From Mycobacterium sp. (GTDB lineage: Bacteria; Actinomycetota; Actinomycetes; Mycobacteriales; Mycobacteriaceae): a stretch of DNA of 64,000 nt. The position numbers and the translations under genes were made by a program. Numbering within the stretch: the stretch's first letter is position 1; every line of letters starts with the position of its first letter. This document shows positions 880 through 44,499 of this stretch, piece by piece. Below the pieces are notes generated by a model that saw only the letters and a list, made by a program, of their open reading frames with translations, searched no databases and had not been told where the DNA came from. Where the stretch lies: assembly GCA_965229105.1 (NCBI GenBank), contig OZ245858.1; one strand, given 5' to 3'.

Positions 880-902
880 TAACCTGACCGACCGGCTTTG
901 CC

Positions 903-2363: not shown

Positions 2364-2393
2364 CACGCGAGGCCGCGCAGGGCCGGCCCCAGG

Positions 2394-3305
2394 GTGTCGC
2401 GGTACCGTCCACCTGTGAGCCAAGGGCCCAATCCGCATGCCGTCCGCTGGCGGCTCGAAGAGCGTTACCGACAGTTGGCCGCGGCACGCCAGGTCCGGCC
2501 CATCGCGGCGATCCTCACCCGTTTCAGCGACATCGATGGGAGCACGCTGGGCATCTTGGTGTCGGTTCAGCTGTTCACCACGGTCATCCCGTTGATCATC
2601 ATCGGATTCAGCTACCTCACTGGCTTTGCCGACAATGCCAGTCCCGGAACGGTTTTCACTCGCGCCCTCGGCCTGGTATCGCCACTGACGGACCATGTCC
2701 GCGACGCCTTCGGGCATTCGTCAGGATTGCGGTCCAGCTGGACTTTCATTGGTGTCGCAGGCTTTCTGGTGTGGGTGATCCCCATGGGGATGAGCATCGC
2801 CAGCATCTTCGCCAAGGCATGGCGCCGTGAACAATTCGGGCTCTTCGGCAAGGTCTGGCGCGGCGTAGCGTGGTTCGCGTTGTATCTGGCGATGATCGGC
2901 GTACGTGAACGGATCGCGTTCGGCGGTGATCACCACGGCGCCATGCGGGTGCTCCGCTTCACCGCTTCCCTTCTGCCATGCTGGATTTTCTGGTCGCTGA
3001 CGCCCATCCTGCTGGTCCGCGACGGTGGTCACGGCCGGAAATATGTGGTGTTCGCCGGCCTGGCCGGCGTCGTCATCGATGGGACGATTCTGCCGATCGC
3101 CACCCGAATTCTGTTCCCGCCGCTGCTCAACGGATGGGATGAGTTGGGCGCGATGGGCGTGGCCATGGCGTTGTTGACGTGGTGTGGGGTGATCGGCACC
3201 GGATGGGTGGTCACGGCATGCGTGGGGGCCGTGTTATGGGAACGATCCGCCCCGCCCACGACTGTCATCGAGTCCCAGGAAGATGACATCAAGGACCGGG
3301 ATTGA
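2394..3305 (+). CDS. Integral membrane protein, loosely YihY/BrkB-like
   Basis: 303-aa ORF with several hydrophobic helices (LGILVSVQLFTTVIPLIIIGFSYL, WTFIGVAGFLVWVIPMGMSIASIF). The family call is weak. Confidence 0.4.
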   Translation: MSRYRPPVSQGPNPHAVRWRLEERYRQLAAARQVRPIAAILTRFSDIDGSTLGILVSVQLFTTVIPLIIIGFSYLTGFADNASPGTVFTRALGLVSPLTDHVRDAFGHSSGLRSSWTFIGVAGFLVWVIPMGMSIASIFAKAWRREQFGLFGKVWRGVAWFALYLAMIGVRERIAFGGDHHGAMRVLRFTASLLPCWIFWSLTPILLVRDGGHGRKYVVFAGLAGVVIDGTILPIATRILFPPLLNGWDELGAMGVAMALLTWCGVIGTGWVVTACVGAVLWERSAPPTTVIESQEDDIKDRD

Positions 3306-3380
3306 GCGGTCAGGGACGACTCCCTACGTTACGGTCCGGTCAGCGGATGATTCGGCAAACGCGAACGGAGTCTGGTTGGT

Positions 3381-5411
3381 ATGGGGGCAGCGGCGCATAT
3401 CGGACGGGTCGGCGGGCTGGCGGCGGCGTTGGGCATCGGCGTCGCGGTGCTGTACGGCTGCGGTGCGGCGTCCGCGGATACGGCTGGGCAAACCACCTCC
3501 ACATCGTCGTCGGCGAATGCGCCCTCGCCCGGCCCATCGGCCAAACACACCGCGCCACGATCGCACTCAACCGCCGCGAAAACGGCATCACCCGGAAAGC
3601 GCCGCGCTGCAACGCTGTCCACAGTCAGCACGGCGGTACCCGGCACCCCGGTGACGCCAGCCCTTGATGTACCGGCGGCATTGGGCTTGGCCGTGGCGCG
3701 TAAACAGTCCGCGCCGGCCACGACACCGACCGCATCGGTATCAGCGACACCCGCCTTCACCCCCGGCGTGGCTGTCACACAAACTCCGCCGTTGGCTTTC
3801 CTGCAGGAAATCCCGGTACTGGGCCCGACTTTCGTGACCCCCATCGTCACGGCCATCCACCAGATTCCGATCTTCGGCGACCTGATCCACCCGCTGGTCG
3901 GCTACCCCGTCCTACCAGGGGCGCCGGCCAACGCGCCCGTCGCGCGCGACGTCAAACTCACCTCGTTCGACGGAACGCAGATTTACGTGCACTTCATGCC
4001 GGCCGCCGGCCTCCTGGACGGGCAGCAGGCGCCTACCATCTTCGAGGGTCCCGGCTTGGGGATGCCAGGCAGCACCAGCCTCAACGGCACCCCGCTCGAC
4101 GGCATCTTGACCGACTTCCTTGGTGCGGTACAGGTGGGGACACTTCGCAATGCCGGTTACAACGTCGTCACCTGGGACCCGCGCGGCGAGTTCAGTTCCG
4201 GTGGCCAAGCTGAACTCGACTCCCCCGAGTTCGAGGCGAAGGACGTCTCGGCCATCATCTCCTGGGTCGCCACGCAACCCGAAGTTCAGCTCGACGGTCC
4301 CGGTGACCCACGGTTCGGCATGGTCGGCCCGTCCTACGGCGGCGGTGTTCAGTTGGTGACCGCGGCCACCGACCACCGGGTCGACGCCATCGTTCCCGCT
4401 ATCGCTTGGAACTCGCTGAACACCTCGCTCTACAAAAGTGAGGCGTTCAAGACCGGCTGGGGCTCGCTGTTGACCCTCGCCCTGCTCGCCACCCTGGCGC
4501 GGCCGAACCCGGCGATCTACCCGGCAGCGATCTACGGCGCCCTGACCGGAACGTTGACGCAAGCCCAACAAGACCTCCTGACCGAGCGCGGCCCCGCCGA
4601 TCTGCTCGGCGATATCACCGCGCCGACTCTGCTCATCCAGGGCACTGTCGACACGCTGTTCACCCTGCAGGAGGCGAACCGCAACGCCTTGACGCTGATC
4701 GGCAACGAAGTCCCGACGAAGGTGGTCTGGTTCTGCGGCGGTCACGGCCTGTGCACGAACAATCTGCTCGACGACACCGACGGCAAGCTGATCACCGCAG
4801 ACACCCTGGCCTGGCTCGCGCGCTACGTCAAAGGCGACCAAAACGCAGACGTCGGACCGCAATTCGAGTGGGTCGACCAGAATGGGCAGTACTACTCGTC
4901 GACCACTTACCCCGCCCCGGCCGGCAGCACCATCGTCGTATCGAGCAATACCGGCGGCGTACTTCCCCTGCTGCCCTTCCTGGGTGGCTCGGGGCCACTG
5001 CTGGTGGTCCTACCCATCGGCGGGACGAAAGCGCTGAACGCCTACAACCTGGCGATCCCCGCTGCCACCAACACGACGTACATCGTGGGCACACCAGAAC
5101 TCAGCCTGACCTACTCCGGCGAGGGCATCAGCACCCACGTTTACGCCCAGCTTGTCGACGACACCACAGGTCAGGTGCTCGGCAATCAGGTCACCCCCAT
5201 TGCGGTCACGTTGGATGGGCAAACCCACAGCATCACCGTTCCGCTGGAACAGGTGGCACAAACTCTCAACCCAGGCCAAAGAGTGACTCTGCAGCTGGTC
5301 GCCTCGGCCGCAGATTACGGAACACTATGGACGGCAGGAACACTCAGGGTGTCGAGCATCCAGCTGACGTTGCCGACGATCACCGGCGCGGCGCCCCTGG
5401 CAACTGTGTGA
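3381..5411 (+). CDS. Secreted alpha/beta hydrolase, CocE/NonD (peptidase S15)-like
   Basis: N-terminal export signal GRVGGLAAALGIGVAVLYGCGAASA, Ser/Thr/Pro linker, GPSYGGG nucleophile elbow, long C-terminal beta-rich region. Confidence 0.6.
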   Translation: MGAAAHIGRVGGLAAALGIGVAVLYGCGAASADTAGQTTSTSSSANAPSPGPSAKHTAPRSHSTAAKTASPGKRRAATLSTVSTAVPGTPVTPALDVPAALGLAVARKQSAPATTPTASVSATPAFTPGVAVTQTPPLAFLQEIPVLGPTFVTPIVTAIHQIPIFGDLIHPLVGYPVLPGAPANAPVARDVKLTSFDGTQIYVHFMPAAGLLDGQQAPTIFEGPGLGMPGSTSLNGTPLDGILTDFLGAVQVGTLRNAGYNVVTWDPRGEFSSGGQAELDSPEFEAKDVSAIISWVATQPEVQLDGPGDPRFGMVGPSYGGGVQLVTAATDHRVDAIVPAIAWNSLNTSLYKSEAFKTGWGSLLTLALLATLARPNPAIYPAAIYGALTGTLTQAQQDLLTERGPADLLGDITAPTLLIQGTVDTLFTLQEANRNALTLIGNEVPTKVVWFCGGHGLCTNNLLDDTDGKLITADTLAWLARYVKGDQNADVGPQFEWVDQNGQYYSSTTYPAPAGSTIVVSSNTGGVLPLLPFLGGSGPLLVVLPIGGTKALNAYNLAIPAATNTTYIVGTPELSLTYSGEGISTHVYAQLVDDTTGQVLGNQVTPIAVTLDGQTHSITVPLEQVAQTLNPGQRVTLQLVASAADYGTLWTAGTLRVSSIQLTLPTITGAAPLATV

Positions 5412-5476
5412 AACAACCGCTTCGGGCCGAGCTGAGCCGGGTCGCCGAGGGGGCAGGGCCCGCGTCGGCTGATGCT

Positions 5477-5749
5477 ATGACTGCCCTCGGCGACGGACCG
5501 GTCGAGAGGCGCCTGCGTGCGGCGATGTGTGCGTTGGCGCGGCACCGAGGCAGCGACAGCAGCACCTGCCCGTCTGATGCGGCCCGGGCAGTCGGCGGCG
5601 ACAACTGGCGCGAGCTGATGGCCGGTGCCCGCGACATCGCCCGCGACTTGGCCAGCTCCGGTGACGTCGAGATCACGCAGCGGGGTGAGGTCCTTGATCC
5701 CGACGCCACCTGGCGCGGCCCGATCCGCATCCGGATCAGGGCCTCTTGA
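5477..5749 (+). CDS. DUF3253 domain protein
   Basis: C-terminal 90 aa of listed ORF 4751..5749 (MTALGDGPVERRLRAAMCALARHRG..CPSDAARAV..WRELM..ITQRGEVLDP). ATG at 5477; alternative GTG at 5408. Confidence 0.5.
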   Translation: MTALGDGPVERRLRAAMCALARHRGSDSSTCPSDAARAVGGDNWRELMAGARDIARDLASSGDVEITQRGEVLDPDATWRGPIRIRIRAS

Positions 5750-5770
5750 TCAGATGTCGGTCTGCGAGCA

Positions 5771-6481
5771 CTAGCTTGCGACGTAGACCGTATTGGTCGA
5801 ATATCCGCCGGTGAGCGGGTTGGGGAAGCGCACGATCGTCGCCTCGGAACGGTCGAAGACCTCGGCGAGGACCGCCTCGAAGTCGGCGTCGGGTGGATCA
5901 TCGGACCACAGCGCGAAGACTCCCCCGGGATGCAGGTGCCCGGCGAGCCTTCGCAGTCCCGCAGGCGTGTAGAACGTGCCGTGGCTCGGGTGCAGGAGGT
6001 GTCGCGGCGTGTGGTCGATGTCGAGCAGGACGGCGTGGAAGCGGCGGCCCGGCGCCTCCGGATCAAAACCGACGTCGCTGTCGGCCATCGCGAAGAAGTC
6101 GCCGTGTTGAAGGCGGACCCGCGGATCCGACACCAGTTCGGCGGTGTCGGGAAGTAACGCACGCTGGTGCCAGCCGATGACCTCTGCCAGTGCGTCGATC
6201 ACGACGAGTGAATGAAGGCGGGAATCGTTGAGCGCCGTCACCGCCGTATAGCCGAGTCCCAATCCCCCGACGACGACATCCAGGTCGGCATCGACCGCCT
6301 CCGACAACCCGAGGCGCGCAAGTTCCACCTCGGCCACCGTGAACAGACTCGACATCAAGAACTCGTCGCCGAGCTTGACCTCATACACCTCAACGTTCAG
6401 CGATGGCTCGATACGCCTGCGCAGGCTGATGACACCCATGGGAGTCTGCGCCCAATCGAGTTCCACGAAGCGTGCACTCAC
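5771..6481 (-). CDS. Spermidine synthase-like (SAM-dependent methyltransferase fold) protein
   Basis: 236 aa with glycine loop VVVGGLGLGYT and FHAVLLDIDHTP, typical of spermine/spermidine synthase-like proteins. Confidence 0.55.
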   Translation of the reverse strand: MSARFVELDWAQTPMGVISLRRRIEPSLNVEVYEVKLGDEFLMSSLFTVAEVELARLGLSEAVDADLDVVVGGLGLGYTAVTALNDSRLHSLVVIDALAEVIGWHQRALLPDTAELVSDPRVRLQHGDFFAMADSDVGFDPEAPGRRFHAVLLDIDHTPRHLLHPSHGTFYTPAGLRRLAGHLHPGGVFALWSDDPPDADFEAVLAEVFDRSEATIVRFPNPLTGGYSTNTVYVAS

Positions 6482-6578
6482 GACCCACCACCGATCCGCC
6501 CGCGATATCGCTCGCCGAGAAGGCTCGGCTAGTGAACCCTACAGACAGTCAGCGGGTTGGCGCCGGGACCGTCGACGA

Positions 6579-10010
<3,432 letters not shown>

Positions 10011-10027
10011 CGGGCCTTCGGCCAGAC

Positions 10028-10417
10028 TCAGGCGGCTTCCCCGGACGGCGCGTTGACGTCCTCGGGCAAGGCGGCCTTGGCGATCTCGACGAGCGCGGTG
10101 AACGCAGCGGGATCGCTGATGGCGATCTCCGAGAGGTTCTTGCGGTCGACCTCGACGCCTGCGAGCTTGAGGCCCTGGATCAGGCGGTTGTAGGTGATGC
10201 CGTTGGCCCGGCCAGCAGCGTTGATCCGCGAGATCCACAGCTTGCGGAAGTCACCCTTGCGGGCCTTCCGGTCGCGGTAGGCGTAGGTCAGTGAATGCAG
10301 CTGCTGCTCTTTGGCTTTGCGGTACAGCCTGGAGCGCTGGCCGCGATAGCCCTTAGACGCCTTGAGGACTGTGCGCCGCTTCTTTTGCGCGTTGACTGCG
10401 CGCTTCACGCGTGCCAT
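10028..10417 (-). CDS. rplT: 50S ribosomal protein L20
   Basis: [38 protein letters not shown].. is a canonical L20. Confidence 0.97.
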
Positions 10418-10469
10418 GGGGTGTTCCTATTCTTCAGGTCTCGTTCAAACTACAAATCGGGGTACGGGA

Positions 10470-10664
10470 TTAACCGTTCAGCATCTTGTTGACGCGCTTG
10501 GTGTCGTTCGCAGCCACAACTTCGCGGCCGTCGAGACGGCGGGTACGCCTGCTCGACTTGTGCTCGAGCAGGTGGCGCTTACCCGCCTTCTGGCGCACGA
10601 TCTTTCCCGTACCCGTGCGACGGAACCGCTTCGAAGCGCCGCTGTGGGTCTTGGCCTTGGGCAT
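10470..10664 (-). CDS. rpmI: 50S ribosomal protein L35
   Basis: [36 protein letters not shown].. is a canonical L35. Confidence 0.97.
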
Positions 10665-10707
10665 GTGTCCTCAGTTCTTTGTCTTGATTCAGTGGTTCTT
10701 CGGTGAA

Positions 10708-11346
<639 letters not shown>

Positions 11347-11430
11347 GGGGCCTCCCGGGTTGTTCCTCTGGTCATGACCGACCACGGGAAACAACGAAGA
11401 ACAGCCTGAGGAAATGCCGCACCATCAGCA

Positions 11431-11472
11431 TTTTCTGTTCCATAGAACAGAAAAGCCCTGCAGTTGCAGGGC
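11431..11472 (-). promoter_or_regulatory. Two adjacent perfect hairpins in the infC-rpmI-rplT leader (terminator/antiterminator-like)
   Basis: Read on the minus strand: GCCCTGCA-AC-TGCAGGGC followed directly by TTTTCTGTTC-TATG-GAACAGAAAA. The U-rich tract after the GC hairpin is itself the 5' arm of a 10-bp hairpin. Lies about 85-125 nt upstream of the infC start. Confidence 0.5.
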
Positions 11473-11637
11473 CCAATGCCGACCGGTCGCGGATAAACCG
11501 CCTGCGTAACACGCAGAACAGGCACCGTTAAGATGCCTATGACCGGACCGTTGAGCCGTAAAGCCAACGGTGGGAGTGGGACTCCACTTGCTGTCCTGGC
11601 GTTAGCCGGGACGGTCGCGCATGCCAGTCTAGCAGGC

Positions 11638-12012
11638 ATGACCGATGATCCCAGAATCGCGCCAGACGATTCCGTCGACCCTGATGAGCTCCCGCTGCGG
11701 GAGCTCGCTGACATCCCTGCCATCGAGGTGATCACCAGGGCTGCGGTGATGTTGATGAGCGCAACCGCCGAGAAGCTCGGGTTGTCGTCACCAGACCCCG
11801 ATGACAGCCCACACCGCGATCTCGACGAGGCTAGGCGCCTGATCGTCGCACTCGCCGGTCTGGTGACGGCATCCGTCGAATATCTGGGTCCACATGCGGG
11901 CCCGGTCCGCGACGGACTGAAGACGCTGCAGTTGGCCTTCCGGGAAGCCAGCGCCGCCCCAGATGAGCCCGGTCAGGGTCCGGGCGAGAAATACACCGGC
12001 CCAGTCTGGTAG
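11638..12012 (+). CDS. DUF1844 domain protein
   Basis: MTDDPRIAPDD..IEVITRAAVMLMSATAEKLGLS..DLDEARRLIVALAGLV. Acidic small protein; ATG 11638 within listed ORF 11533..12012. Confidence 0.5.
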   Translation: MTDDPRIAPDDSVDPDELPLRELADIPAIEVITRAAVMLMSATAEKLGLSSPDPDDSPHRDLDEARRLIVALAGLVTASVEYLGPHAGPVRDGLKTLQLAFREASAAPDEPGQGPGEKYTGPVW

Positions 12013-12056
12013 GTCCCACACCCATTCCCAGGTTCTAGCGAATATCCTCGCGGCCT

Positions 12057-15000
12057 ATGACCCTCGCTACCCGCTCGACGAGCAGGCCGACATCTCGGTA
12101 TCGGTGGGTACCTGCCGCCGCCGGCTGGACCATCGGCGTCATCGCGACCCTGTCGCTGTTGGCGAGCGTGTCACCGGCAGTGCGCTGGGTCATCAAGATC
12201 CCGCGGGAATTCGTCAACGATTACATCTTCAACTTCCCCGACACGAGCTTCGCCTGGGCGTTCGTGCTGGCCCTGCTCGCGGCCGCGTTGGCGGCCCGCA
12301 AGAGCCTCGCCTGGTGGCTACTGGTGCTGTACATGGTCGCGGCCAGCGTGTGGAACATCGGCGACCTGATCACCGGCGACGTGTCGGTGATGGACGATGT
12401 CGGCGAAGTCATCGGCCTGGTCTTCCACGTCGCGGCGATCGCCTTCCTGGTGCTGGCCCGCAAAGAATTCTGGGCCAGGGTCCGCCGCGGCGCTCTGTTC
12501 AAGGCAGCCGCTGTCCTGGTGGCCGGGATGGCGGTCGGGATCCTGGTCGGCTGGGGTTTGTTGACGATGTTCCCCGGCTCGCTGGATCACGATGAGCGGC
12601 TGCCGTACGCGGCCAACCGGGTCGTGGTGTTCGCCGGTGTCGATGCCGACGCCTTCTCCGGGCACCACCCGCATGTCTTCGTCAACGCGCTACTCGGCCT
12701 GTTCGGCGCGCTGGCCCTGATGGTCGCGGCGGTCGTGTTGTTCCAGTCGCAGCGCGCCGAGAACGCGCTGACCGGTGAGGACGAGTCGGCCATCCGCGGG
12801 CTACTTGAGCTGTGGGGCAAGAACGACTCCCTGGGCTATTTCGCCACCCGCCGCGACAAGTCGGTGGTGTTCGCCCCCAACGGCCGGGCCGCAATCACCT
12901 ACCGCGTCGAGGCGGGTGTCTGCCTGGCCAGCGGTGACCCCGTTGGTGATCCGAGGGCATGGCCCGCGGCGATGGCCGAATGGCTGGCGCTCTGCCAGGA
13001 GTACGGCTGGGCGCCGGGGGTGATGGGTGCGAGTTCGGCCGCGGCGCAGGCTTTCCGCGAAGCCGGCCTCAACGCGATCGAACTCGGCGACGAAGCCATC
13101 CTGTATCCCGACAGATACAGACTGTCCGGGCCGGATATGAAACCGGTCCGCCAAGCCGTGACCAGGGCCAGGCGCGCCGGCCTGACGGTACGCATCCGTC
13201 GCCACCGCGAGCTCTCCACCGAGGAGATGGCCGAAGTCACCAAGCGGGCTGACCGCTGGCGCGATACCGAGACCGAGCGCGGCTTCTCCATGGCGCTGGG
13301 GCGCCTCGGTGACCCGGCGGACTCCGACTGCCTTCTGGTCGAGGCCGTCCGTGCCGCAGCCGATGGCGACGGCGACGGCACGTCCGAGGGCGACGTCGTC
13401 GCTATGCTGTCGCTGGTGCCGTGGGGCACCAACGGGGCCTCCCTCGACCTGATGCGCCGCGCGCCGGATTCCCCCAACGGCACCATCGAATTGATGGTCA
13501 GCGAGCTGGCATTGCAGTCCGAAGGCATTGGGGTGAATCGGATTTCGCTGAACTTTGCGATGTTCAGGTCCGCCTTCGAAGAGGGTGCGCAGCTGGGTGC
13601 GGGTCCGGTGGCCCGGCTCTGGCGGGCACTGCTGGTGTTCTTCTCCCGGTGGTGGCAACTGGAGACGCTCTACCGGTCGAACATGAAGTACCAGCCCGAG
13701 TGGGTGCCGAGGTTCGCCTGCTACGAGGATGCGCGGCTGATCCCGCGCGTCGGCGTCGCTTCGGTAATCGCCGAGGGTTTCTTGGTGCTGCCGTTCAGTC
13801 GTCGCGGTAAACAGCACACCGGTCAACACTCGGCGGTACCGCAGACCCTGGTGGAGACTGGCCTGCTACATGAGGACGGCTCCACTCCCGACGTCAGCGG
13901 GCTCAGTGTCGACGGTCCCGAGGAGAATCGGGCACCCCGCCTTCCCGAACAAGTCCGGGTTCGGATGGCCAAGCTGAAGTTGCTGCAGGACAACGGGATC
14001 GACGCCTATCCGGTTGGCAAACCGCCGTCGCATACCGTGGCCCAGGCCCTGGAGAGCCCCGATGGTACGACCGTGAGCGTGTCGGGTCGGATATTGCGCA
14101 TTCGAGACTACGGCGGGGTCCTGTTCGGACAACTGCGCGACTGGTCCGGTGAAGTGCAGTTGCTCCTGGATAACACATCGCTCATCGAGGGCGACACCGC
14201 CGGCTTCACCGCCGCCATCGACCTCGGTGACCTGGTCGAGGTGACCGGAGCGATGGGAGTCAGCAAGAACGGCACCCGCTCGGTGCTCGTCCACAGCTGG
14301 CGGATGATCGGCAAGTGCCTACGGCCACTGCCAGATAAGTGGAAGGGGCTCACTGATCAGGAGGCGCGGGTGCGTACCCGCTACGTCGACCTGGCCATCA
14401 ACACCGAGGCCCGCGATCTGATCAGGGCCCGCAGCCACGTCCTGCATGCGATCCGGGAAACGTTGTTCGCCAAGGATTTCCTCGAGGTCGAGACGCCGAT
14501 CCTGCAGCAGATCCACGGCGGTGCGAACGCCCGGCCGTTCATCACCCACATCAACGCCTACGACCTCGCGCTGTACCTGCGGATCGCACCGGAGCTCTAT
14601 CTCAAGCGGCTCTGCGTCGGTGGGGTTGAGCGGGTGTTCGAATTGGGCCGGGCCTTCCGCAACGAAGGGGTGGACTTCAGTCACAACCCGGAGTTCACCC
14701 TGCTGGAGGCATACCAGGCACACGCTGACTACAACGTCTGGATCGACGGCTGTCGCGAGCTGATCCAGAACGCCGCGCTGGCCGCCAACGGTGCACATGT
14801 CGTCATGCGACCGAGGGAAAACGGCAGCCTTGAGCCCGTCGACATCTCGGGCCAGTGGGCGGTCAAGACCGTGCACGGCGCCGTCTCGGAAGCCCTCGGC
14901 GAGCACGTCGACACCGACACCGACCTTGCGACCCTGCGACGGTTCGCCGACGCCGCCCATATCCCGTACCAGACCCACTGGGATCCCGGTGCCGTGGTGC

Positions 15001-15395
15001 TGGAGATGTACGAGCACCTCGTCGAGGACCGCACGGAGAATCCGACGTTCTACAAGGACTTCCCGACCTCGGTGTCACCGCTGACCCGACCGCATCGCAG
15101 CCTGCCCGGTGTCGCCGAGCGCTGGGATCTGGTGGCCTGGGGTGTCGAGCTCGGCACCGCCTACAGTGAGCTCACCGACCCCGTCGAACAGCGGCGCCGG
15201 CTGCAGGAGCAGTCCCTGTTGGCGGCGGGTGGTGACCCAGAAGCGATGGAACTCGACGAGGATTTCCTGCAGGCGATGGAATACGCGATGCCTCCAACAG
15301 GCGGTCTTGGCATGGGTGTCGATCGTGTCGTCATGCTGATTACCGGCCGCAGCATCCGCGAGACATTGCCGTTCCCGCTGGCGAAGCCACGATGA
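12057..15395 (+). CDS. lysX: Bifunctional lysylphosphatidylglycerol synthetase / lysine-tRNA ligase
   Basis: 1112 aa. N-terminal multi-TM MprF-like domain fused to a class II LysRS ([38 protein letters not shown]). Same position as Rv1640c. Confidence 0.95.
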
Positions 15396-15467
15396 GAAAC
15401 GTTAGCTGGCAATCACCGGGACGGGTGACAGCTCCCTCACAGTGACCGGTAAGCAACGCCGTCCACG

Positions 15468-17006
15468 ATGGAGCCCGTGACAGCTTCGCTGCCCCCGGTT
15501 GTGCTGGGCCACGCCACCTCTGTACTGGCCGATCCGGCCGGGCCCGCACAACACCGAATCTCGTTGATGCACGGCTGGATACCGATCACGGTCCAGGTGC
15601 TCGCCATGCTCCTGTTGCTGCTTGCTGTCGGCTGGCGCTCACGTCGCTGGCGTGTGCTGTGGGTGCCCGTGGCCGCCGGTATCGGTATCGGACTCGCCGG
15701 GTGGACGCACTGGTATATCGCCTCGGACGGGTTGGCTGATGATCCCGCTCCGAAACAGTTGTGGGTGTGGGTCGCCCTGACCGGCGCCGCGGCGGCCATC
15801 TTGCTGCTGGGGTGGCGCAGTGCCCGGTGGTGGCGCCGCGGAGTGTCCGTACTGGCGCTGCCACTGTGCCTGCTCAGCGCGGCCCTCGCCCTGAACCTGT
15901 GGGTCGGGTACTTCCCGACGGTGCAGACCGCGTGGAACCAGATGACCGCCGGGCCGCTACCTGATCAGACCGATCGCGCCACCGTCACCGCGACAGTGGC
16001 GCAGGTCCAGGCCCAGCATGTCCTGCCCGCCAAGGGCAGCGTCATCACCGTCACGATCCCGTCCACCGCATCCGGCTTCAAGCACCGCGATGAACTCGTC
16101 TACCTGCCGCCGGCCTGGTTTGCCACCAGTCCCCCGCCCAAGCTCCCGACAGTGATGATGATCGGCGGCGAATTCAACACCCCGTCGGACTGGCTGCGTA
16201 CCGGCAACGCCATCAGCACCGTCGACGCCTATGCCGCCGCACACGGTGGCAACGCACCGGTACTGGTGTTCGTCGATGCGGGCGGCGCGTTCAACAATGA
16301 CACCGAATGCGTCAACGGACCCCGCGGCAACGTCGCCGACCACCTCACCAAAGACGTTGTGCCGTATATGAGTGCGAGCTTCGGGGTCAGCACGAACCGT
16401 GCCAACTGGGGGGTCGTGGGCTGGTCGATGGGCGGCACGTGCGCGGTGGATCTGGTCTCGATGCATCCCGACATCTTCAGCAGCTTCCTCGACATTGCCG
16501 GTGACCTGACCCCCAACGCCGGTAACAAAACTCAGACGATCGACAGACTCTATGGCGGCGATTCCTCGGCCTGGGCGGCCTTCGACCCTGCCACCGTGAT
16601 CGCCAAGCACGTTCCCTACCAAGGGGTGTCGGGGTGGTTCGCCATCTCGGGCACCCAGTCGACCCAGCCACACCGCAACGAACAGGCCGCGGATGCTGGT
16701 GCCGTCGGTCTTGGCGGCCGGGATGCCACCGGTAACCCCGGTGATCAGACGACCGCGGCCACCACCCTGTGCGGGTTGGGCCGGGCCAACGGGTTCACCT
16801 GTGCGGTCGTCGCGCAGCCCGGTAAACATGACTGGCCCTTCGCCGAGAAGGCTTTCGTCGCGGCACTGCCCTGGTTGGCCGGGGCGCTCGCCACGCCCGG
16901 CGATCCGGTGGTCACGCTGCCGGGTGCGACCGCGGGGATTACGGTGCTGCCCACACCGGTGGGTCCGACCAATCCGACCTTGCACGCCCAAGGCGCCGGT
17001 CCGTAG
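15468..17006 (+). CDS. Membrane-anchored esterase-family (esterase D / antigen-85 fold) protein
   Basis: N-terminal TM helices followed by an esterase domain with GWSMGGTCA. Position matches Rv1639c. Confidence 0.6.
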   Translation: MEPVTASLPPVVLGHATSVLADPAGPAQHRISLMHGWIPITVQVLAMLLLLLAVGWRSRRWRVLWVPVAAGIGIGLAGWTHWYIASDGLADDPAPKQLWVWVALTGAAAAILLLGWRSARWWRRGVSVLALPLCLLSAALALNLWVGYFPTVQTAWNQMTAGPLPDQTDRATVTATVAQVQAQHVLPAKGSVITVTIPSTASGFKHRDELVYLPPAWFATSPPPKLPTVMMIGGEFNTPSDWLRTGNAISTVDAYAAAHGGNAPVLVFVDAGGAFNNDTECVNGPRGNVADHLTKDVVPYMSASFGVSTNRANWGVVGWSMGGTCAVDLVSMHPDIFSSFLDIAGDLTPNAGNKTQTIDRLYGGDSSAWAAFDPATVIAKHVPYQGVSGWFAISGTQSTQPHRNEQAADAGAVGLGGRDATGNPGDQTTAATTLCGLGRANGFTCAVVAQPGKHDWPFAEKAFVAALPWLAGALATPGDPVVTLPGATAGITVLPTPVGPTNPTLHAQGAGP

Positions 17007-17409: not shown

Positions 17410-18606
17410 GTGCGCTCATTCAGTGTTGAGGAACGCCGTGCACGTCTGGCGCGTCGGCACTTTCTGTCCGACGGCGCCCTGGGTGCATCCATCCCCGACC
17501 TGACCGGCGCACTCGTCGGCTGGCACGCCACCGACCCGGCTACCCCGTACCTCTCGCTGTGGGCGAGGCTGCCGGGTTTCACCATCGCCGATCTTGATGC
17601 CGAAATCTATGACCACCGCACCGTGGTCAAGCAGTTGGCGATGCGTCGCACGCTCTGGCTGGTCCAGACATCACACCTGACGATGGTTCAGCCCGGCGCC
17701 AGCGACCGGGTTGCTGACGATGAGCGTCGCCGGCTGATCGCCGATGTCGAGAAGGCCGGTGTCGCCGATGATGGCGGCCGCTGGCTCGATATCGCCTGCG
17801 CGCGAGTGCTGAGCTATCTGCGCGAACACGGGCACGGCAGCAGCACGGAACTGCGGGCCGCGATCCCTGAGTTGGCGGGCACGTTCGATCCCGCACCCGG
17901 AAAGCGTTGGGGCGGAGCCACACCGCTGGCGCCGCGGGTGCTCACCGTGCTGTCGGTCCGCGGCGATATGGTCCGCGGACCCAACGACGGGTCATGGACC
18001 CATTCGCGGCCGCGTTGGGTGGGCACCGCGGACTGGTTGGGTGCCGACATCGACGTGATGTCCGCCGATGCGGCGCGCGCGGCGTTGATCACCACGTGGC
18101 TGCGGGCTTTCGGGCCCGCCACCCTCACCGATATCAAATGGTGGTTCGGCAGCACGCTCACGGCTGTCCGCGCGGCACTGTCGACCATTGATGCCGTGCA
18201 GGTCGATCTGCACGGCTCACCGGGGTACGCGCTACCGGATGATCTGGAACCCGAGCCCGACGCCGAGCCATGGGTGGCGCTGCTACCCGGCCTTGACGTC
18301 ACCACCATGGGGTGGTCGGAGCGCGACTGGTATCTGGGCGAGCATCGCAACCAGGTGTTCGATACCAACGGCAACGGCGGACCGACCGCCTGGTGCAACG
18401 GTCGGATCGTGGGCGGCTGGTATCAGGACGCCGACGCCCGGGTGCAGCTTCAACTCCTCGAAGATCCCGGGCGGGCCGGCATGAAGGCGCTTGCCCGCCG
18501 AGCCGACGAACTGACGGCGTGGGCCGGCGGCGTCCGGGTCAGCGCCAGATTCCCCTCGCCTTTATCGAAGTCTCAGTCCATAGCTGGCGCCGCCGCTAGG
18601 CGCTGA
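17410..18606 (+). CDS. Winged-helix DNA-binding protein, YcaQ/AlkZ-like DNA glycosylase family (DUF1006)
   Basis: 398 aa. N-terminal [15 protein letters not shown] and the overall pattern are typical of YcaQ-family proteins. GTG start. Confidence 0.55.
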
Positions 18607-21511
18607 CTTTGCGTTTACGCGGAGCCCGCTTCTTCTCAGGCGCCGCCGGTGTTTGCTTGCCGAGCACCTCGGCGAGGAACTTCCCGGTGTAACTGGCCGG
18701 CACTGCGGCCACATCCTCCGGGGTGCCCTCGGCGACCACGGTGCCGCCGCCGGCACCACCTTCGGGACCCATATCGATGATCCAGTCCGACGTTTTGATG
18801 ACATCAAGGTTGTGTTCGATGACGATCACCGAATTGCCTTTGTCCACAAGTCCATTGATGACCTTGAGAAGCTTGCGGATGTCTTCGAAGTGCAGACCGG
18901 TGGTGGGCTCGTCGAGGATGTAGACGGTGCGCCCGGTCGACCGCTTCTGCAATTCGGCGGCCAGCTTGACGCGCTGCGCCTCACCACCGGAGAGCGTCGG
19001 GGCCGGCTGTCCCAGCCGCACATAGCCGAGCCCGACATCGACCAGAGTCTTCAGATACCGGTGGATGCTGGTGATCGGCTCGAAGAACCCCGATGCCTCT
19101 TCGATCGACATATCGAGCACTTCGGAGATGGTCTTGCCTTTGTAATGCACCTCGAGGGTTTCCCGGTTGTACCGGGCGCCGTGGCACACCTCGCACGGGA
19201 CATACACATCCGGCAGGAAGTTCATCTCGATCTTGATGGTGCCGTCACCTGAACACGCCTCGCAGCGACCACCTTTGACGTTGAACGAGAACCGCCCCGG
19301 TTGGTAGCCGCGGACCTTCGCTTCGGTGGTGGCTGCGAACAACGTGCGGATCTTGTCGAACACCCCGGTGTAGGTGGCCGGGTTGGAGCGCGGTGTCCGC
19401 CCGATCGGCGACTGGTCGACGCGCACCAGCTTGTCGAGTTGGTCCACCCCGTTGATCCGCAGGTGCCGGCCGGGCACCTGCCGCGCACCGTTGAGTTTGT
19501 TGGCCAGCACCGAGGCCAGAATGTCGTTGACCAGGGTGGACTTACCGGAGCCAGACACCCCGGTGATCGAGGTGAGCACACCCAGCGGGAACGCCACGTC
19601 GATCTCGCGCAGGTTGTTTTCGCGCGCACCCACCACGGTGAGCTGACGACGACGGTCGATCGGCCTGCGGATCGCCGGAATCTCGATGCTCTCCCGACCC
19701 GAAAGGTAGGCGCCGGTGATCGAGTTGGGGTTGGTCAGCAGATCCTTGTAGGACCCACTGTGCACCACGGTGCCGCCGTGTTCGCCGGCCGCAGGTCCGA
19801 TATCGACCACCCAGTCGGAATGGGCGATGGTGTCCTCGTCGTGTTCTACGACGATCAGCGTGTTACCCAAATCCCTTAGGCGCGTGAGAGTTTCGATGAG
19901 CCGACGATTGTCACGCTGGTGCAGTCCGATCGATGGCTCATCGAGGACGTACAACACTCCGGCGAGTCCCGAGCCGATTTGGGTGGCCAGCCTGATCCGT
20001 TGCGCCTCACCGCCGGAGAGCGTGCCCGCGGCCCGCTCCAACGACAGGTACTCCAATCCGACGTCGAGCAGGAACCCCAACCGTGACTGGACCTCTTTGA
20101 GCACCTGCCCGGCGATCGCCGCTTCACGGTGACCGAGGGTCAAGGCGTTGAGGAAGTCGGCGCAGTCTGCGATGGACAGGGCGCACACTTCGGCGATTGA
20201 CTTGTCGCCGCGCTCCCCTCCGGACAGCGTGACGGCGAGGATCTCGGGCTTGAGGCGGGTGCCGTTGCAGACCGGGCATGGCACGTCGCGCATGAAGCCG
20301 TCGTAGCGCTCCTTCATCTGCTCGGACTCGGTCTGCTCCATCCGGCGGTGCAGAAACGGCATGACGCCCTCGAAGTCGGCGTAGTACGACCGGGTGCGCC
20401 CGTAGCGGTTCTTGTACTTGACGTGCACCTGCTCGTCGGAGCCCTCGAGCAGGGCCTTGCGAGCCTTGACGGGGAGCTTCTTCCACGGTGTGTCGACATC
20501 GAATCCGAGCGCCTCACCCAGGCCCGACATCATCCGGGTGAAGTACTCCGATGTGTGGCCCATCGACCACGGCGCGATCGCGCCCTCGGCCAGGGTCAGC
20601 TCGGGGTCAGGGACGACGAGTTCCGGATCGACCTCTTTGCGGATGCCAAGTCCGGAACATTCCGGGCAGGCACCATAGGGCGAGTTGAACGAGAACGATC
20701 GGGGCTCAAGGTCATCGACGGCCAGGGCGTGACCGTTGGGACAGGCCAGCTTCTCGGAGAAGCGCTGCTCGCGGTGCGCGGCGCCTTCTTCCTGGTCGAC
20801 GAACTCGAGCACGACGATGCCGTCGGCCAGGTTCAGTGCCGTCTCCACCGAATCGGTGAGGCGCTGTTTGGCGCTCGCCTTGACGGTGAGGCGGTCGACG
20901 ACGACCTCGATATCGTGTTTTTCCTGCTTCTTGAGCTTTGGCGGATCGGTCAGCGAATGGACGACGCCGTCGACGCGGACCCGGCTGTAACCCTGAGCGT
21001 TGAGCTTTTCGAAGAGGTCGACGAACTCACCCTTGCGGGTGCGCACCACCGGCGCCAAGACCTGGAACCGGGTGCCTTCTGGCATCACCAGAACCTGGTC
21101 GACGATCTGTTGGGGTGACTGTTTCGCGATCCGCTCGCCACACACCGGGCAGTGCGGGCTGCCCGCGCGGGCATAGAGCAGACGCAGATAGTCGTACACC
21201 TCGGTGATGGTCCCGACGGTTGACCGTGGGTTGCGGTTGGTCGACTTCTGGTCGATCGACACCGCGGGCGAGAGCCCTTCGATGAAGTCGACGTCAGGTT
21301 TGTCCATCTGCCCCAGGAACTGCCTGGCGTACGCCGACAACGACTCCACATAGCGCCGTTGTCCTTCGGCGAAGATGGTGTCGAACGCCAGCGACGACTT
21401 ACCCGACCCGGACAGTCCCGTGAAGACGATCAGCGAGTCGCGGGGCAGATCAAGGTCGACGCCGCGCAGGTTGTGTTCACGCGCTCCCTTGACGATCAGG
21501 CGATCAGCCAC
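18596..21511 (-). CDS. uvrA: Excinuclease ABC subunit A
   Basis: 971 aa: [60 protein letters not shown].. with two ABC modules and zinc-finger cysteines. Confidence 0.98.
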
Positions 21512-21616: not shown

Positions 21617-21646
21617 GAAATCCCCGGCAGCGATAACGTGACCACC

Positions 21647-22324
21647 ATGACTGTCGTCGACGATAAGTACACCGGCCACGTCGAGCCTGGTAGCGGCGCA
21701 CGCCGCGTCCTGCCCGGCGCGTCGATCGTGAAGGTGTCGGTGGGCCCGATGGACAACAACGCCTACCTGGTCACCTGTTCCCGAACCGGCGAATCCCTAC
21801 TCATCGACGCCGCCAACGATGCCGAGACCCTGGTCGATGTGGTGCACCAATACGCCCCCACAGTCTCCCTGATCGTGACATCACACCAGCACATGGACCA
21901 CTGGCTTGCCCTCGAGGCGCTCGCCGCGGCGACTGGGGCACCGACCGCGGCACATGAACTCGATGCCGAACCGCTCCCGGTCAAGCCGACGCGGATCCTG
22001 GCCGGTGGCGACACCGTGACTGTCGGCGACCTGTCCTTCGACGTCATCCACCTACGCGGGCACACCCCGGGCTCGGTGGCGCTGGCGTTGTCGGGAGACG
22101 CCGTGGGCGGGATCACTCAACTGTTCACCGGCGACTGCCTCTTTCCCGGTGGTCCTGGACGGACAACACGCCCGGAAGATTTTCAAACGCTGCTCGGTGA
22201 CCTGGAAACAAGGGTCTTCGATCGGTACGACGACGCCACGGTTGTCTATCCCGGTCACGGCGACGACACCACGCTGGGCAACGAGCGTCCACACCTCGAT
22301 GAATGGCGCGCGCGGGGCTGGTGA
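21647..22324 (+). CDS. MBL-fold metallo-hydrolase
   Basis: MTVVDDKYTGH..; metal motif SHQHMDHW; HLRGHTPGS; C-terminus YPGHGDDTTLGNERPHLDEWRARGW. Position matches Rv1637c. Confidence 0.85.
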   Translation: MTVVDDKYTGHVEPGSGARRVLPGASIVKVSVGPMDNNAYLVTCSRTGESLLIDAANDAETLVDVVHQYAPTVSLIVTSHQHMDHWLALEALAAATGAPTAAHELDAEPLPVKPTRILAGGDTVTVGDLSFDVIHLRGHTPGSVALALSGDAVGGITQLFTGDCLFPGGPGRTTRPEDFQTLLGDLETRVFDRYDDATVVYPGHGDDTTLGNERPHLDEWRARGW

Positions 22325-22528
22325 GATTCGAAACTCAATTTTGGCGTTACGGGTTCAGTCGCTGCCGACCACGCGTGACGAAGAACTGCCGGTGGTCTTG
22401 ATCCTCGATGGGGACGGCCATGGCGGTCGCGGACGGTTTCGACGCCGTACAAACCACCAACACGTACTTGAGCGCAGCGCGGGAGCCCTAACCTTGGCAC
22501 GGCATAGGACCGTCAAGGGAGACACGAA

Positions 22529-22954
22529 ATGAAGATCAAAGCAATGCTCGCTCTGTCGGTGGTGTTGGTGGGGTCCGCAGCACTTGCACCACAGGTTGCC
22601 GCCAACCCTTATTCCGGGATGGATGACGCGCATGTTCAGATCTTCAGATCCCCGTCGGGCAATATCCACTGCGAGATCGACTTCCAACGCGACCCGCGCA
22701 TTCCTGACGGTGCGTACTGCATGTCGTTGAACCCCTTGCAGAATGCCCAAATCCGGGCTGATGGGTCACTGGCGAGTGTCTGCACCGATGGCGTAAGTTG
22801 CGGCAGTAATGGCCCGCAAGATGAAGGGGTCCTTGCCTATGGTGCGAGCGCCGTCCTCGGGCCATTCACCTGCTTGTCGGAGCAATCCGGGATGACCTGC
22901 ACCGCCAACGGCCGGGGCTTCAAAATCTCGACAGCCGGTATCGCGCCGGTCTAA
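22529..22954 (+). CDS. Small secreted cysteine-rich protein
   Basis: Signal peptide MKIKAMLALSVVLVGSAALAPQVAA; GGGAGA Shine-Dalgarno upstream; six Cys; FRSPSGNIHCEID motif. Confidence 0.6.
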   Translation: MKIKAMLALSVVLVGSAALAPQVAANPYSGMDDAHVQIFRSPSGNIHCEIDFQRDPRIPDGAYCMSLNPLQNAQIRADGSLASVCTDGVSCGSNGPQDEGVLAYGASAVLGPFTCLSEQSGMTCTANGRGFKISTAGIAPV

Positions 22955-23043
22955 CCGGAAGCCACTCCCATCAGGTGTAGTTGTCGCGCCGCAAGATCTC
23001 GTACCGGAGTCGCTTGATGATCGCCTTCCCCGGCTATCCGTTC

Positions 23044-23226
23044 TTTCCAGGCGGTCCTGGACGGACAACACGCCCAGAGGAGCTCGAGTCTCTGATGAGC
23101 GACCTCACGGCACGGGTGTTCGACACATACGACGACGCTACGGTGATCTACCCCGGCCACGGTGACGACACCAAGCTTGGCGCTGAGCGACCGCATCTGG
23201 CCGAGTGGCGCGAACGAGGCTGGTGA
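23044..23226 (+). pseudogene. Displaced 3' fragment of an MBL-hydrolase gene (copy 2)
   Basis: FPGGPGRTTRPEELESLMSDLTARVFDTYDDATVIYPGHGDDTKLGAERPHLAEWRERGW aligns with the last ~60 aa of the gene at 21647..22324. The 23-nt string ggtcctggacggacaacacgccc is shared (22151 and 23053). Confidence 0.8.
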
Positions 23227-23367
23227 TTCCATCCGAGGGCTGCCGACTACGGGAGATCAGGCCCGTGACCATCACCGAAGTAACACCAGTTCTGGCCAAC
23301 GTGCCTGTACCAGTCGGCGCTACACACCGCACATGGCTTGAAGGTCCTGCGAGACTGCGCCTTTCAC

Positions 23368-24027
23368 CTAGGCAGGACAGACCTCCAGGTCCAGATTCCA
23401 CTCCGTCGTGACAGTAAGAAGCGGATCGGGTGCGGGGTCTATCAATGGAATGATCTCGCCCACGAGGTCCGCATCTCCGCAGCCCTCAAATAGGGCCACA
23501 CACGGTTGAGCGTCAAGCCGAGACAAAAACCTCACGGCAGCCACACCGCTGTCGTAGAGGTCACCAGCAATCGTCTGGGTAACCACGCGACGACTCGTCG
23601 TGATTTCGTGCAGATCAAGGTGTTTCATGTCGTTTTCGATCAGAAGCGGGGCGTGCCTGTCTTCTATCTGTTGACGCACTGCCCCGTCCGTTAGGTCAAT
23701 CATCGGGCCGTCAAGTCTCAGTAGCGCTGGAACTAGTACGTTCTGGCGGCGCCAGCTTGCAGTCACCGGCTCCGAGGCGAAGTCTTCAGCCGCTTCGGGC
23801 CCGTATCGCTCGATATGCCTGAGCTTGGCACCGAGATTTGGCCGGAGGTCTGCCAGCACTTCGCGGAGGCAGGTTTCGGGCAAGTCCGCCAGATAGAGAG
23901 TGCGGAAGCGGTGGTGAAGGTCGTCGAAGCGATGGTTGAAGCTGTATAGCTCGAGCGGCGTGAATGCAAGTGGACTTGCGTGGTAGCCAACTCTCCACAG
24001 CAGCAGTTCGGAGCCGACTTTGGTCAC
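23368..24027 (-). CDS. RES-domain toxin (MbcT-like NAD+-degrading family)
   Basis: 219 aa. NHRFDD..FRTLYLADLPETCLREVL (Arg, Glu) and AAVRFLSRLD (Ser) fit the R-E-S signature. GTG start overlaps the antitoxin stop (GTGA). Confidence 0.8.
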   Translation of the reverse strand: MTKVGSELLLWRVGYHASPLAFTPLELYSFNHRFDDLHHRFRTLYLADLPETCLREVLADLRPNLGAKLRHIERYGPEAAEDFASEPVTASWRRQNVLVPALLRLDGPMIDLTDGAVRQQIEDRHAPLLIENDMKHLDLHEITTSRRVVTQTIAGDLYDSGVAAVRFLSRLDAQPCVALFEGCGDADLVGEIIPLIDPAPDPLLTVTTEWNLDLEVCPA

Positions 24028-24419
24028 GCCTGAAAGCTAGCGACCTGTCTAGCCGCTTGCACGACCATCGCGAAATCAGCCGTGTCGGACGCGTCGCCGA
24101 GAACTTCGACTGGCGCACGATCGTCGAGACGTGTATTTGTGCCAAACAACCAGGCTCGAGCAGTCTTGTCGTCGTACGCATCAACAAGCATTCGGACAAC
24201 TTTGTAGCCCTCACGCAGCCTGCGTTCGGCTACATCGTGCGGTTCCGGGCCGCCTGCCCGCGCGTATCGGCCGATCTGTTTAGCATCCGCAAGTCCTGCG
24301 AGGGCTGCGGTGATTCGTTGTCCGACCGTTTCCTGCAGGTAGCCGGCGATTTCACGAATTGAGCGGGTTGTCGCCTCGAAATCGAGCCTCTCAGCGGCGC
24401 TGGCTGTTAGAACAGACAT
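24024..24419 (-). CDS. Xre/MbcA/ParS-like antitoxin (DUF2384 toxin-binding domain)
   Basis: MSVLTASAAERLDFEATTRSIREIAGYLQETVG..WLFGTNTRLDDRAPVEVL. ATG 24419 with GGAGG 7 nt upstream. The listed ORF extends spuriously to 24659. Confidence 0.75.
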   Translation of the reverse strand: MSVLTASAAERLDFEATTRSIREIAGYLQETVGQRITAALAGLADAKQIGRYARAGGPEPHDVAERRLREGYKVVRMLVDAYDDKTARAWLFGTNTRLDDRAPVEVLGDASDTADFAMVVQAARQVASFQA

Positions 24420-24510
24420 TCTGGGACCTCCGGACGGGCTGTATCCAGCCACAAGGCTACCACTAGACCCACTACAAACAACACCTATAACAACACCATA
24501 AATCACCACG

Positions 24511-24689
24511 CCCGGTGGTATCGGCAAGACCTGGCAGCCCGGGGACTTCGAAAACTGCTCGACGACGTCTCCACCCGGTTGTTCAGCGTCTACCCGGACT
24601 CCACGGTGGTGTATCCGGGCCACGGCGATGACACGACCCTCGGCGCTGAGCGGCCGCACCTGGCGGAGTGGCGCGAACGCGGCTGGTAA
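24511..24689 (+). pseudogene. Displaced 3' fragment of an MBL-hydrolase gene (copy 3)
   Basis: Translates to PGGIGKTWQPGDFEKLLDDVSTRLFSVYPDSTVVYPGHGDDTTLGAERPHLAEWRERGW*. No upstream catalytic part. Confidence 0.8.
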
Positions 24690-24830
24690 CAGCTATCGTG
24701 CCCACCCCCATTATTAACTAGGGCGTTAAATTGTATTCATCCTGCTGCGGTCAGATGAACTTTCAACGCCTCGATGACTCGCGTGGGTTTTCCGCGTGGG
24801 GTTCTGCGGGCTCACGGACGGGGTGGGGCG

Positions 24831-44408: not shown

Positions 44409-44428
44409 TCACCTTGCGTACACACGCG

Positions 44429-44499
44429 AGCGAGTGGCGGGATTCGAACCCGCGTGAACGGCTTTGCAGGCCGGTGCCTGACCACTCGGCCACACCCGC
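44429..44499 (-). tRNA. tRNA-Cys (anticodon GCA)
   Basis: Hand-folded 71-nt cloverleaf: acceptor GCGGGTG/CACTCGC (one G-U pair), anticodon loop CUGCAAA, T-arm GCGGG-TTCGAAT-CCCGC, discriminator U73 (a Cys identity element). CCA is not encoded. Confidence 0.85.

Follow-up and report, generated by a model that had tools for sequence, protein, structure and literature searches.

The final 60 codons of a metallo-beta-lactamase (MBL)-fold hydrolase gene are present three times in a 64,000-nucleotide stretch of DNA from Mycobacterium sp. (GenBank assembly GCA_965229105.1, contig OZ245858.1), which will be referred to as the window. One copy is the live end of the intact gene and two are orphan fragments further downstream, with small cargo genes located between the copies. 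Comparison with related genomes and with phages makes it probable that the codons F-P-G-G at the start of the repeated part are the attachment site of phages and elements with large serine integrases, and that the window carries the scars of serial integration in at least two rounds, which later decayed. Serial integration had been proposed in a first-pass annotation made from the sequence alone, and is now supported by the shared boundary of the copies, by related loci and by a phage-borne fragment located beside a serine integrase.

Repeated ends of the hydrolase gene

The MBL gene (21647-22324, + strand) is oriented divergently from uvrA (18596-21511, - strand), and its product matches the Pfam family Lactamase_B (E 5.4e-15). 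All three copies of its end are encoded on the + strand, at the coordinates and with the C-terminal peptides given in the first-pass annotation. For comparison, species-representative genomes were scanned with the MBL protein, yielding 80 loci (designated, like the other loci below, by L numbers), almost all from Mycobacterium and related genera, with L001 as the top match (83% identity). The features of the gene and of its repeated ends are the following.

21647-22141, + strand: host-derived 5′ part of the live MBL gene, 165 codons, Lactamase_B; 144 of 165 amino acids identical to the closest relative L001; single at the site in all 80 related loci
22142-22153, + strand: predicted crossover zone, codons F-P-G-G (TTTCCCGGTGGT), with the switch from host to element sequence; start of nearly all full-length orphans and of all phage-borne fragments
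22142-22324, + strand: copy 1, live 3′ end, 60 codons plus stop, GPGRTT type; 47/60 amino acids identical to gp38 of phage Larva and just 43/60 to the live end of L001
23026-23043, + strand: left flank of copy 2, start of repeat family D8; weak resemblance to the gene's own upstream sequence and to phage P arms
23044-23226, + strand: copy 2, orphan 3′ end, 60 codons in an intact frame, GPGRTT type; 46/60 amino acids identical to copy 1 and 44/60 to Larva gp38
24511-24689, + strand: copy 3, orphan 3′ end, host GKTW type, frameshifted; 55/60 amino acids identical to the live end of L001

Copies 1 and 2 share 74% of their nucleotides (BLASTP E 5e-36 for the encoded peptides), and a weaker similarity extends 18 nt further upstream (22124 versus 23026; repeat family D8). 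Their differences are distributed 11/6/30 over the first, second and third codon positions, which demonstrates that each copy evolved as coding sequence and is not a product of local slippage. The earlier view that the fragments represent differing alleles was thus confirmed at the nucleotide level; the constant boundary and the linkage of attP, the attachment site of the phage, to an integrase (see below) likewise rule out a slippage duplication.

Copy 3 is more degraded. It contains a 1-nt deletion near position 24552 and ACG in place of the first codon TTY, and is in frame with its stop for the last 47 codons only, of which 33 are identical to copy 1 at the amino acid level (E 2e-24). Its identity to the live end of L001 is in line with that found for the rest of the gene, whereas copy 1 is much less similar to that end, which supports the assignment of copy 3 as the original, displaced host end of this genome. 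To the distal orphan of M. agri (see below) copy 3 is 82.8% identical in nucleotides. The nearest nucleotide neighbours of copy 1 are GRTT-type ends, including those of phage Larva (77%) and of the IMG/VR contig L083 (78%). Judging from these similarities, copy 1 would be an element-borne end delivered by the latest insertion, and copy 2 an element-borne former live end which was displaced later on.

In uninserted genomes the MBL gene is followed by a convergent universal-stress-protein (USP) gene within ~200 nt. The USP gene of the window (32088-32534, - strand) lies ~9.8 kb from the MBL gene, and the GC content drops to 0.58-0.60 over positions 22200-24800.

Host-type and GRTT-type ends at related loci

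Two types of live end were found among the 80 loci. The majority (63) ends in FPGG(V/I)GKTWQPGDF..., which will be called the host type, and the remaining 17 in FPGG(P/L/V)GRTT(R/K)P..., the GRTT type, towards which the sample is biased. All attP copies from phages and elements belong to the GRTT type. An empty site is the majority state, and orphan 3′ fragments downstream of the live gene were detected in L005, L026, L049, L052, L053, L060 and L067, the last one being a 22-residue remnant only, as well as in Mycolicibacterium agri (L089, GCA_010722915.1). Orphans of the host type are present in L005, L026, L052, L053 and L060, as fragment 3 of L049 and as fragment 3 of M. agri; in every case with a readable type the distal orphan is of the host type, and in L052 it directly adjoins the conserved USP gene. 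Tandem full-length MBL paralogs, of which the fragments might have been decayed members, were found neither in the window nor in the 80 loci, in each of which the N-terminal 165 amino acids match only once at the site.

The M. agri locus (505-11443, - strand) represents an independent three-copy array. Its order is a live GRTT-type end, a RES/Xre gene pair, a GRTT-type orphan, insertion sequence (IS) elements and finally an orphan of the host type, next to which the P arm is clear. The IS cluster between the second and third copies comprises IS481, IS256, rve-type and IS110 transposase genes. The inserts between copies at other loci range from ~0.55 to 6.9 kb; none contains an integrase gene, and the products of their cargo include a TIR-like protein and an enzyme of the arginase family.

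Two further arrangements were observed. L004 (9136-10092) and L064 (10496-11670) possess a GRTT-type live end and ~340-550 nt to the USP gene but no orphan; at these loci the replacement end has outlived all other trace of the element. In L049 (Mycobacterium sp. SMC-11, 10487-15584) four gene-end pieces follow one another. The first is a live end of the host type; the second, a decayed GRTT-type orphan, has a left flank resembling the gene; the third is an orphan of the host type whose P arm is similar to that of Larva, and the fourth is a short remnant. A protein of 530 residues, the N-terminus of which appeared TIR-like by eye, is encoded between the second and third pieces. A simple serial integration does not account for this order, with a live host-type end upstream of a GRTT-type orphan. 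The short remnant in L049 was upheld by local alignment against shuffled controls (score 58 versus 21.9±3.5). A similar short host-type fragment suspected after the Xre promoter in M. agri and L104 scored 18 and 25 against shuffled nulls of 18.7±3.1 and 25.1±4.1, respectively, and was dropped.

Phages and elements carrying the gene end beside a serine integrase

A tblastn search of phage genomes with copy 2 yielded 12 records, all of them subcluster K5-type mycobacteriophages (72-73% amino acid identity, E 7e-25 to ~1e-24). The 60-codon fragment is carried by Larva, Kratio, Collard, AlleyCat, Edugator, Psycho, Dadosky, Agent47 and InvictusManeo. The Larva copy, gp38 (VFPGGPGRTTHPDQFNSLMNDLETKVFDRFDDRTVVYPGHGDDTTLGTERPHLEEWRERGW), is located 19 nt from gp39, which is annotated as serine integrase and, as it contains both a Resolvase and a Recombinase domain, represents a large serine recombinase. 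The genome announcement describes gene 38 only as encoding a 43-residue protein akin to hydrolase C termini and makes no link to an attP (PMC5679794).

In addition, IMG/VR was scanned with an alignment of GRTT-type ends, and four informative contigs were obtained. In L086 and L088 the fragment directly follows integrases with 45% and 38% identity to that of Larva, respectively. L083 contains an attL junction and virion-type genes followed by an integrase (68% identical to Larva's) which is cut by the end of the stored locus. L085 represents the complete integrated form, with attL, element, integrase and attR on one contig: the MBL 5′ part is joined to a GRTT-type end (18-476), an interior of ~9 kb with a WhiB-like gene and a DUF3854/DUF3631 protein follows, and the integrase gene (8314-9792, - strand) precedes an orphan end of the host type (9835-10014). 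This geometry is the one expected if attP is located at the start of the phage-borne fragment. The window shows the same layout, a live gene composed of the host 5′ part and an element-type end (copy 1) and a distal orphan of the host type (copy 3). Recombinases next to an MBL 3′ fragment, for which the first-pass annotation had suggested looking in other elements, are thus present in the K5 phage Larva and in these four contigs, and proved to be serine integrases, with at least three lineages (38-68% identical to Larva gp39) carrying this fragment.

In the element of L085 (UViG_3300031473_000041, 476-9835, ~9.4 kb) no capsid gene was recognised; instead of a phage, it may be an integrative element of a satellite-like or plasmid-like kind. 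Its host is not a close mycobacterial relative (MBL 48% identical).

The window itself was reported in the first-pass annotation to retain no integrase or recombinase. In agreement with this, tblastn with the Larva integrase gave a best E value of 2.5 at an unrelated place in the window, and no large serine integrase was found in the 80 loci either. Searches of the window site with Larva gp31-gp44 (13 Larva proteins besides the integrase) detected no K5 genes, a search for integrase remnants in the 80 loci was likewise negative, and a motif scan of the window and the 80 loci revealed no integrase remnants. The window thus holds remnants and not a whole element.

A constant boundary at the F-P-G-G codons

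If the ends were exchanged by site-specific recombination, a common sequence should mark the boundary of the copies, and alignment clearly demonstrated one. Copies 1 and 2 share the left edge TTTCC(C/A)GG(T/C)GGTCCTGGACGGACAACACGCCC, and copy 3 starts in the same register with CCCGGTGG. The phage copies and nearly every full-length orphan start with TTCCC(C/G)GG(C/G)GG, corresponding to the F-P-G-G codons; junctions at the same codons were found in L026, L049 (fragment 3), L052 and L060 and for both M. agri orphans. Two exceptions were noted: the L005 orphan starts ~2 codons later, and the L053 orphan retains some resemblance to the gene for ~30-60 nt ahead of F-P-G-G.

To the left of F-P-G-G, live genes have the gene's own B-type flank (...ggcgactgcctg), and orphans and attP copies have a P-type flank; the window-like form of the host-type site sequence is ...GGCGACTGCCTGTTCCCCGGCGGCGTCGGCAAGACCTGG.... 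The P-arm motif ggtATTCAC..GAnCCTACGGTA, immediately followed by TTCCC, is common to Larva, Collard, the attR of L085, fragment 3 of L049, fragment 3 of M. agri, and L060. Based on the constant start of orphans and phage copies and on the two kinds of left flank, the crossover is predicted to occur within ~12 nt at F-P-G-G. The arms of L086 and L088 differ from the Larva-type P arm, which is consistent with diverged integrase lineages using the same target. No dyad symmetry that would fix the central dinucleotide was seen on inspection by eye of the predicted Larva attP, which is centred on position ~31,122 of the phage record.

Cargo genes between the copies

The intervals between the copies contain the following features.

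22427-22966, + strand: cargo module 1, a small secreted-protein gene (22529-22954) with its upstream region; 93% nucleotide identity over 541 nt to metagenome contig L093
22971-23033, - strand: HNH-endonuclease gene remnant, 21 codons (the first ~20 of the gene) with a premature stop; positions 2-18 of profile phrog_14314, E 1.5e-4
23044-24509, + strand: unit Z, one conserved block of copy 2, spacer, RES, Xre and promoter region; 84.0% nucleotide identity over 1472 nt to M. agri (L089, 10954-9519)
23368-24027, - strand: RES-domain toxin gene, Pfam RES, E 1.2e-10; homologues are named RES family NAD+ phosphorylase
24024-24410, - strand: Xre-type antitoxin gene with a 4-nt overlap with RES; weak Xre_MbcA_ParS_C match, E 0.0045
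24477-24497, + strand: direct repeat AACAACACC-N3-AACAACACC preceding the Xre gene, retained by each of four compared RES/Xre copies (window, M. agri, L049, L104)

Between copies 1 and 2 the first-pass annotation had placed a small secreted-protein gene and nothing else. The gene is there, with a weak match of its product to DUF6636, but the interval additionally contains the HNH remnant (PGKAIIKRLRYEILRRDNYT*). The secreted-protein module is present in L093 in a non-MBL context and, likewise at an unrelated locus, in L094. A homologue of the secreted protein (72% amino acid identity) was observed on a 21-kb contig of JGI sample 3300056388 (genes 1433-5403) beside a DNA methylase gene and small genes of unknown function, with groEL/groES as the immediate neighbours. 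The vicinity of groEL is known to be targeted by a serine integrase in M. smegmatis (Bxb1).

For the interval between copies 2 and 3, the RES/Xre toxin-antitoxin pair named in the first-pass annotation holds for the toxin; the match of the antitoxin is weak. The Xre gene is nevertheless the conserved upstream partner of RES in L049, L089, L091 and L095, and a RES-domain toxin gene preceded by an Xre-family gene in one operon argues for a predicted type II toxin-antitoxin system. The conserved direct repeat is likely the operator of the putative antitoxin.

Copy 2 and RES/Xre appear to travel as a single unit. Unit Z is more similar to its M. agri counterpart, which starts with the live gene's own 3′ end, than is the MBL gene as a whole (21631-22322), for which only 76.9% nucleotide identity was obtained. 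RES/Xre in L049 (92.9% nucleotide identity) is also located directly downstream of an MBL 3′ end, between the host-type orphan and the decayed remnant, and in L104 (89.8%) it directly follows a live end of the host type. It was found in addition at the unrelated loci L091 and L095.

Proposed serial integration and alternative explanations

The proposed mechanism is as follows. Temperate phages and phage-like elements would use the F-P-G-G codons in the uvrA-adjacent MBL gene as their chromosomal attachment site (attB), and the attP of the element would be situated where the phage-borne copy of the last 60 codons begins. Integration would cut the host gene at F-P-G-G and join its 5′ part to the phage-borne end, so that the gene stays intact, and the original end would become an orphan on the distal flank of the element, immediately past the integrase gene. 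In the window, an element with copy 2 and RES/Xre at its left end would have displaced the native end (copy 3) in a first round, and an element with copy 1 and the secreted-protein gene at its left end would have displaced copy 2 in a second round. A subsequent deletion would have removed both integrases and nearly everything else, leaving behind the cargo genes, the 21-codon HNH remnant and the two orphan ends in remnants of 0.9 and 1.5 kb. The phage-type HNH remnant adjoining copy 2 argues for an element origin, as does the drop in GC content across the copies.

Several observations weigh against this reconstruction. The flank left of copy 2 is just weakly P-like, as is that of the GRTT-type orphan in M. 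agri, and a P arm is absent left of copy 3, where ~110 nt present in M. agri are missing from the window. Integrase, repressor and virion genes are all gone from the window and from most related islands, and searches of phage collections (PHROGs, INPHARED by tblastn, IMG/VR) returned no homologue of the cargo genes. The literature searched for the K5 integration site yielded the remark on gene 38 and hydrolase C termini, and no paper which places the site in this gene. In L104, RES/Xre follows a host-type live end without a detectable orphan, so that either the cassette can arrive here leaving no duplicated end, or an orphan existed and was lost by decay. Finally, both the window and M. agri, with a phage-type end as orphan, require the re-use of a converted junction. 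Serine integrases are reported to recombine attP with attB only (PMC5499577), and insertion into a junction with a host left half and a phage-type right half would then not be expected. This might be explained by a different integrase lineage which tolerates the converted right half; it is also possible that the middle copy is an unrecombined attP left after related elements were joined by homologous recombination, or that the array was imported by homologous recombination via conserved flanks.

The small size of the remnants would find another explanation if the cassettes were miniature integrase-less units, consisting of a phage-type end and a P arm, which a serine integrase supplied in trans by a visiting phage excises and re-inserts, with cargo accreting at the gene like integron cassettes or like cis-mobilizable elements (CIMEs) beside integrative and conjugative elements (ICEs). 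We regard this as unlikely, while acknowledging several observations in its favour. The M. agri insert is just ~1.55 kb long and comprises a GRTT-type end, RES/Xre, ~110 nt and a partial P arm (tcgacggta) which borders directly on the following copy; the same minimal content is present in the window, and would be unlikely to result from the independent decay of two large elements. At least four lineages have RES/Xre directly 3′ of an MBL end, with 84-93% nucleotide identity, well above that of the host gene, and many other inserts between copies are small and devoid of integrase genes (~0.55, 0.7, 1.3, 2.6 and 2.7 kb). On the other hand, the HNH pseudogene beside copy 2 is evidence of real decay, unit Z of the window has no P arm, L104 possesses the cassette without a duplicated end, RES/Xre as well as the secreted-protein module are present at unrelated loci too, and neither an excised circle nor a free form was seen. 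Moreover, a single ancestral decay followed by spread through homologous recombination accounts for the shared minimal unit equally well. It is similarly doubtful that the MBL 3′ end acts as an accretion platform across the Mycobacteriaceae, at which integrase-less cassettes such as the 1.5-kb RES/Xre unit are moved in trans and integrases accept converted junctions; if true, this would break the usual restriction of serine integrases to attP and attB.

Somewhat less likely again is that the array was built in another mycobacterium and imported by homologous recombination via uvrA/MBL on one side and the orphan end or downstream genes on the other, or that the middle copy is an unrecombined attP from the homologous joining of a second element to a resident one. 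Both versions sidestep the re-use of a converted site by a serine integrase, and a P-type left flank with a phage-type right half formally represents the attP configuration. Import is favoured by the identity of the block of copy 2 and RES/Xre between the window and M. agri (84%), compared to 76.9% for the neighbouring MBL gene, and by the 93% identity of RES/Xre to L049, where the MBL protein is only ~77% identical. However, copy 3 is orthologous to the lineage's own end, as judged from its similarity to L001, so that either at least the first displacement involved the gene of this lineage or the right crossover took place inside it. Furthermore, import changes the arrival route only, and the duplicated ends still require site-specific integration. 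An origin without any site-specific integration, in which the fragments are decayed tandem MBL paralogs or by-products of illegitimate recombination, is highly improbable. Bare repeats and the upstream extension of similarity in the L053 orphan would fit such an origin. Yet a second N-terminal part is present at the site in no locus, the inspected junctions share one boundary except for L005 and L053, the two sequence types sort by position and not by host, and in phages the fragment adjoins integrases. Homology-facilitated illegitimate recombination is ruled out, like slippage, by the constant boundary, the third-position divergence and the linkage of attP to the integrase. Serial integration followed by decay is therefore the explanation we favour.

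Neighbouring genes

The genes which follow copy 3 had been described as a toxin-like tandem in the first-pass annotation. This could not be upheld: they are two large beta-propeller repeat genes, and Pfam showed no toxin domain. The encoded proteins are predicted to be secreted and comprise ~970 residues each (24774-27677 and about 27800-30642). The two genes are 82.8% identical over 2777 nt (24899-27656 versus 27909-30621), and near their 5′ ends at least 300 nt are 100% identical (24899-25198 and 27909-28208), which suggests a recent gene conversion. Both are absent from L001, and among the loci fetched by that stage a homologue (67% amino acid identity) was found only in L063. The amine-oxidase gene further to the right (30676-32091) is also present in L001 and is probably native to the locus. 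The sole tRNA gene of the window, tRNA-Cys (GCA) at 44428-44499 on the - strand, is unrelated to the repeated MBL ends.

Significance and comparison with known systems

The locus provides a predicted attB and attP at the sequence level for a family of mycobacterial large serine integrases. Their target gene is present in all 80 mycobacterial loci retrieved. These integrases are candidates for the construction of new integration vectors which would leave the target gene intact. The GRTT tail would represent phage-derived sequence fixed in a chromosomal gene, in about one fifth of the sampled MBL genes (17/80, in a sample biased towards this type), and the gene end appears to serve as a landing pad for small cargo such as RES/Xre, a TIR-like protein and secreted proteins. 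With the double and triple arrays comes the question of how a converted serine-integrase site is re-used.

The proposed integration is a known kind of event at an attachment site which is not named in the literature searched. The closest known systems are the K5 phages, Larva among them, whose 60-codon MBL 3′ end belongs, like copies 1 and 2, to the GPGRTT type (44-47/60 amino acids) and whose P arm recurs beside orphan fragments in mycobacterial chromosomes; unlike these phages, the window site contains no K5 gene. The RES/Xre pair resembles modules of the MbcT-MbcA type, with a RES toxin gene and an upstream Xre-type antitoxin gene overlapping by 4 nt, and is cargo with no role in the duplication. 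The resemblance of the cassettes to those of integrons is functional only: no tyrosine recombinase was detected at the site by motif scan, and the cassettes are bounded by copies of the gene end, with no attC-like inverted repeats.

The logic of gene-end replacement is the same as that described for e14 and phage 21, which reportedly integrate inside the 3′ part of the conserved gene icd of E. coli, bring along a diverged replacement of its last ~50 codons and leave behind the end they displace, which persists as pseudogene icdC at the distal junction. Their integrases belong to the tyrosine family and act on a shared core, in contrast to the large serine integrase at the MBL site, and displaced ends arranged in tandem are not known from icd. 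Such arrays recall the CIMEs related to ICESt1 and ICESt3 at the 3′ end of fda in Streptococcus thermophilus, where integrase-less remnants flanked by att sites are said to pile up in tandem with newer elements. The tandem accretion and the idea of mobilisation in trans are common to both; the streptococcal system depends on a tyrosine integrase, a 27-bp repeat and conjugative elements, and mobilisation of cassettes at the MBL site is hypothetical. Large serine integrases which use an attB inside a protein-coding gene have been described for Bxb1 (groEL1) and for the M. abscessus prophages MabI and MabJ, all of which disrupt their target (PMC8092301), whereas the elements at the MBL site carry the 60 codons that would rebuild theirs.

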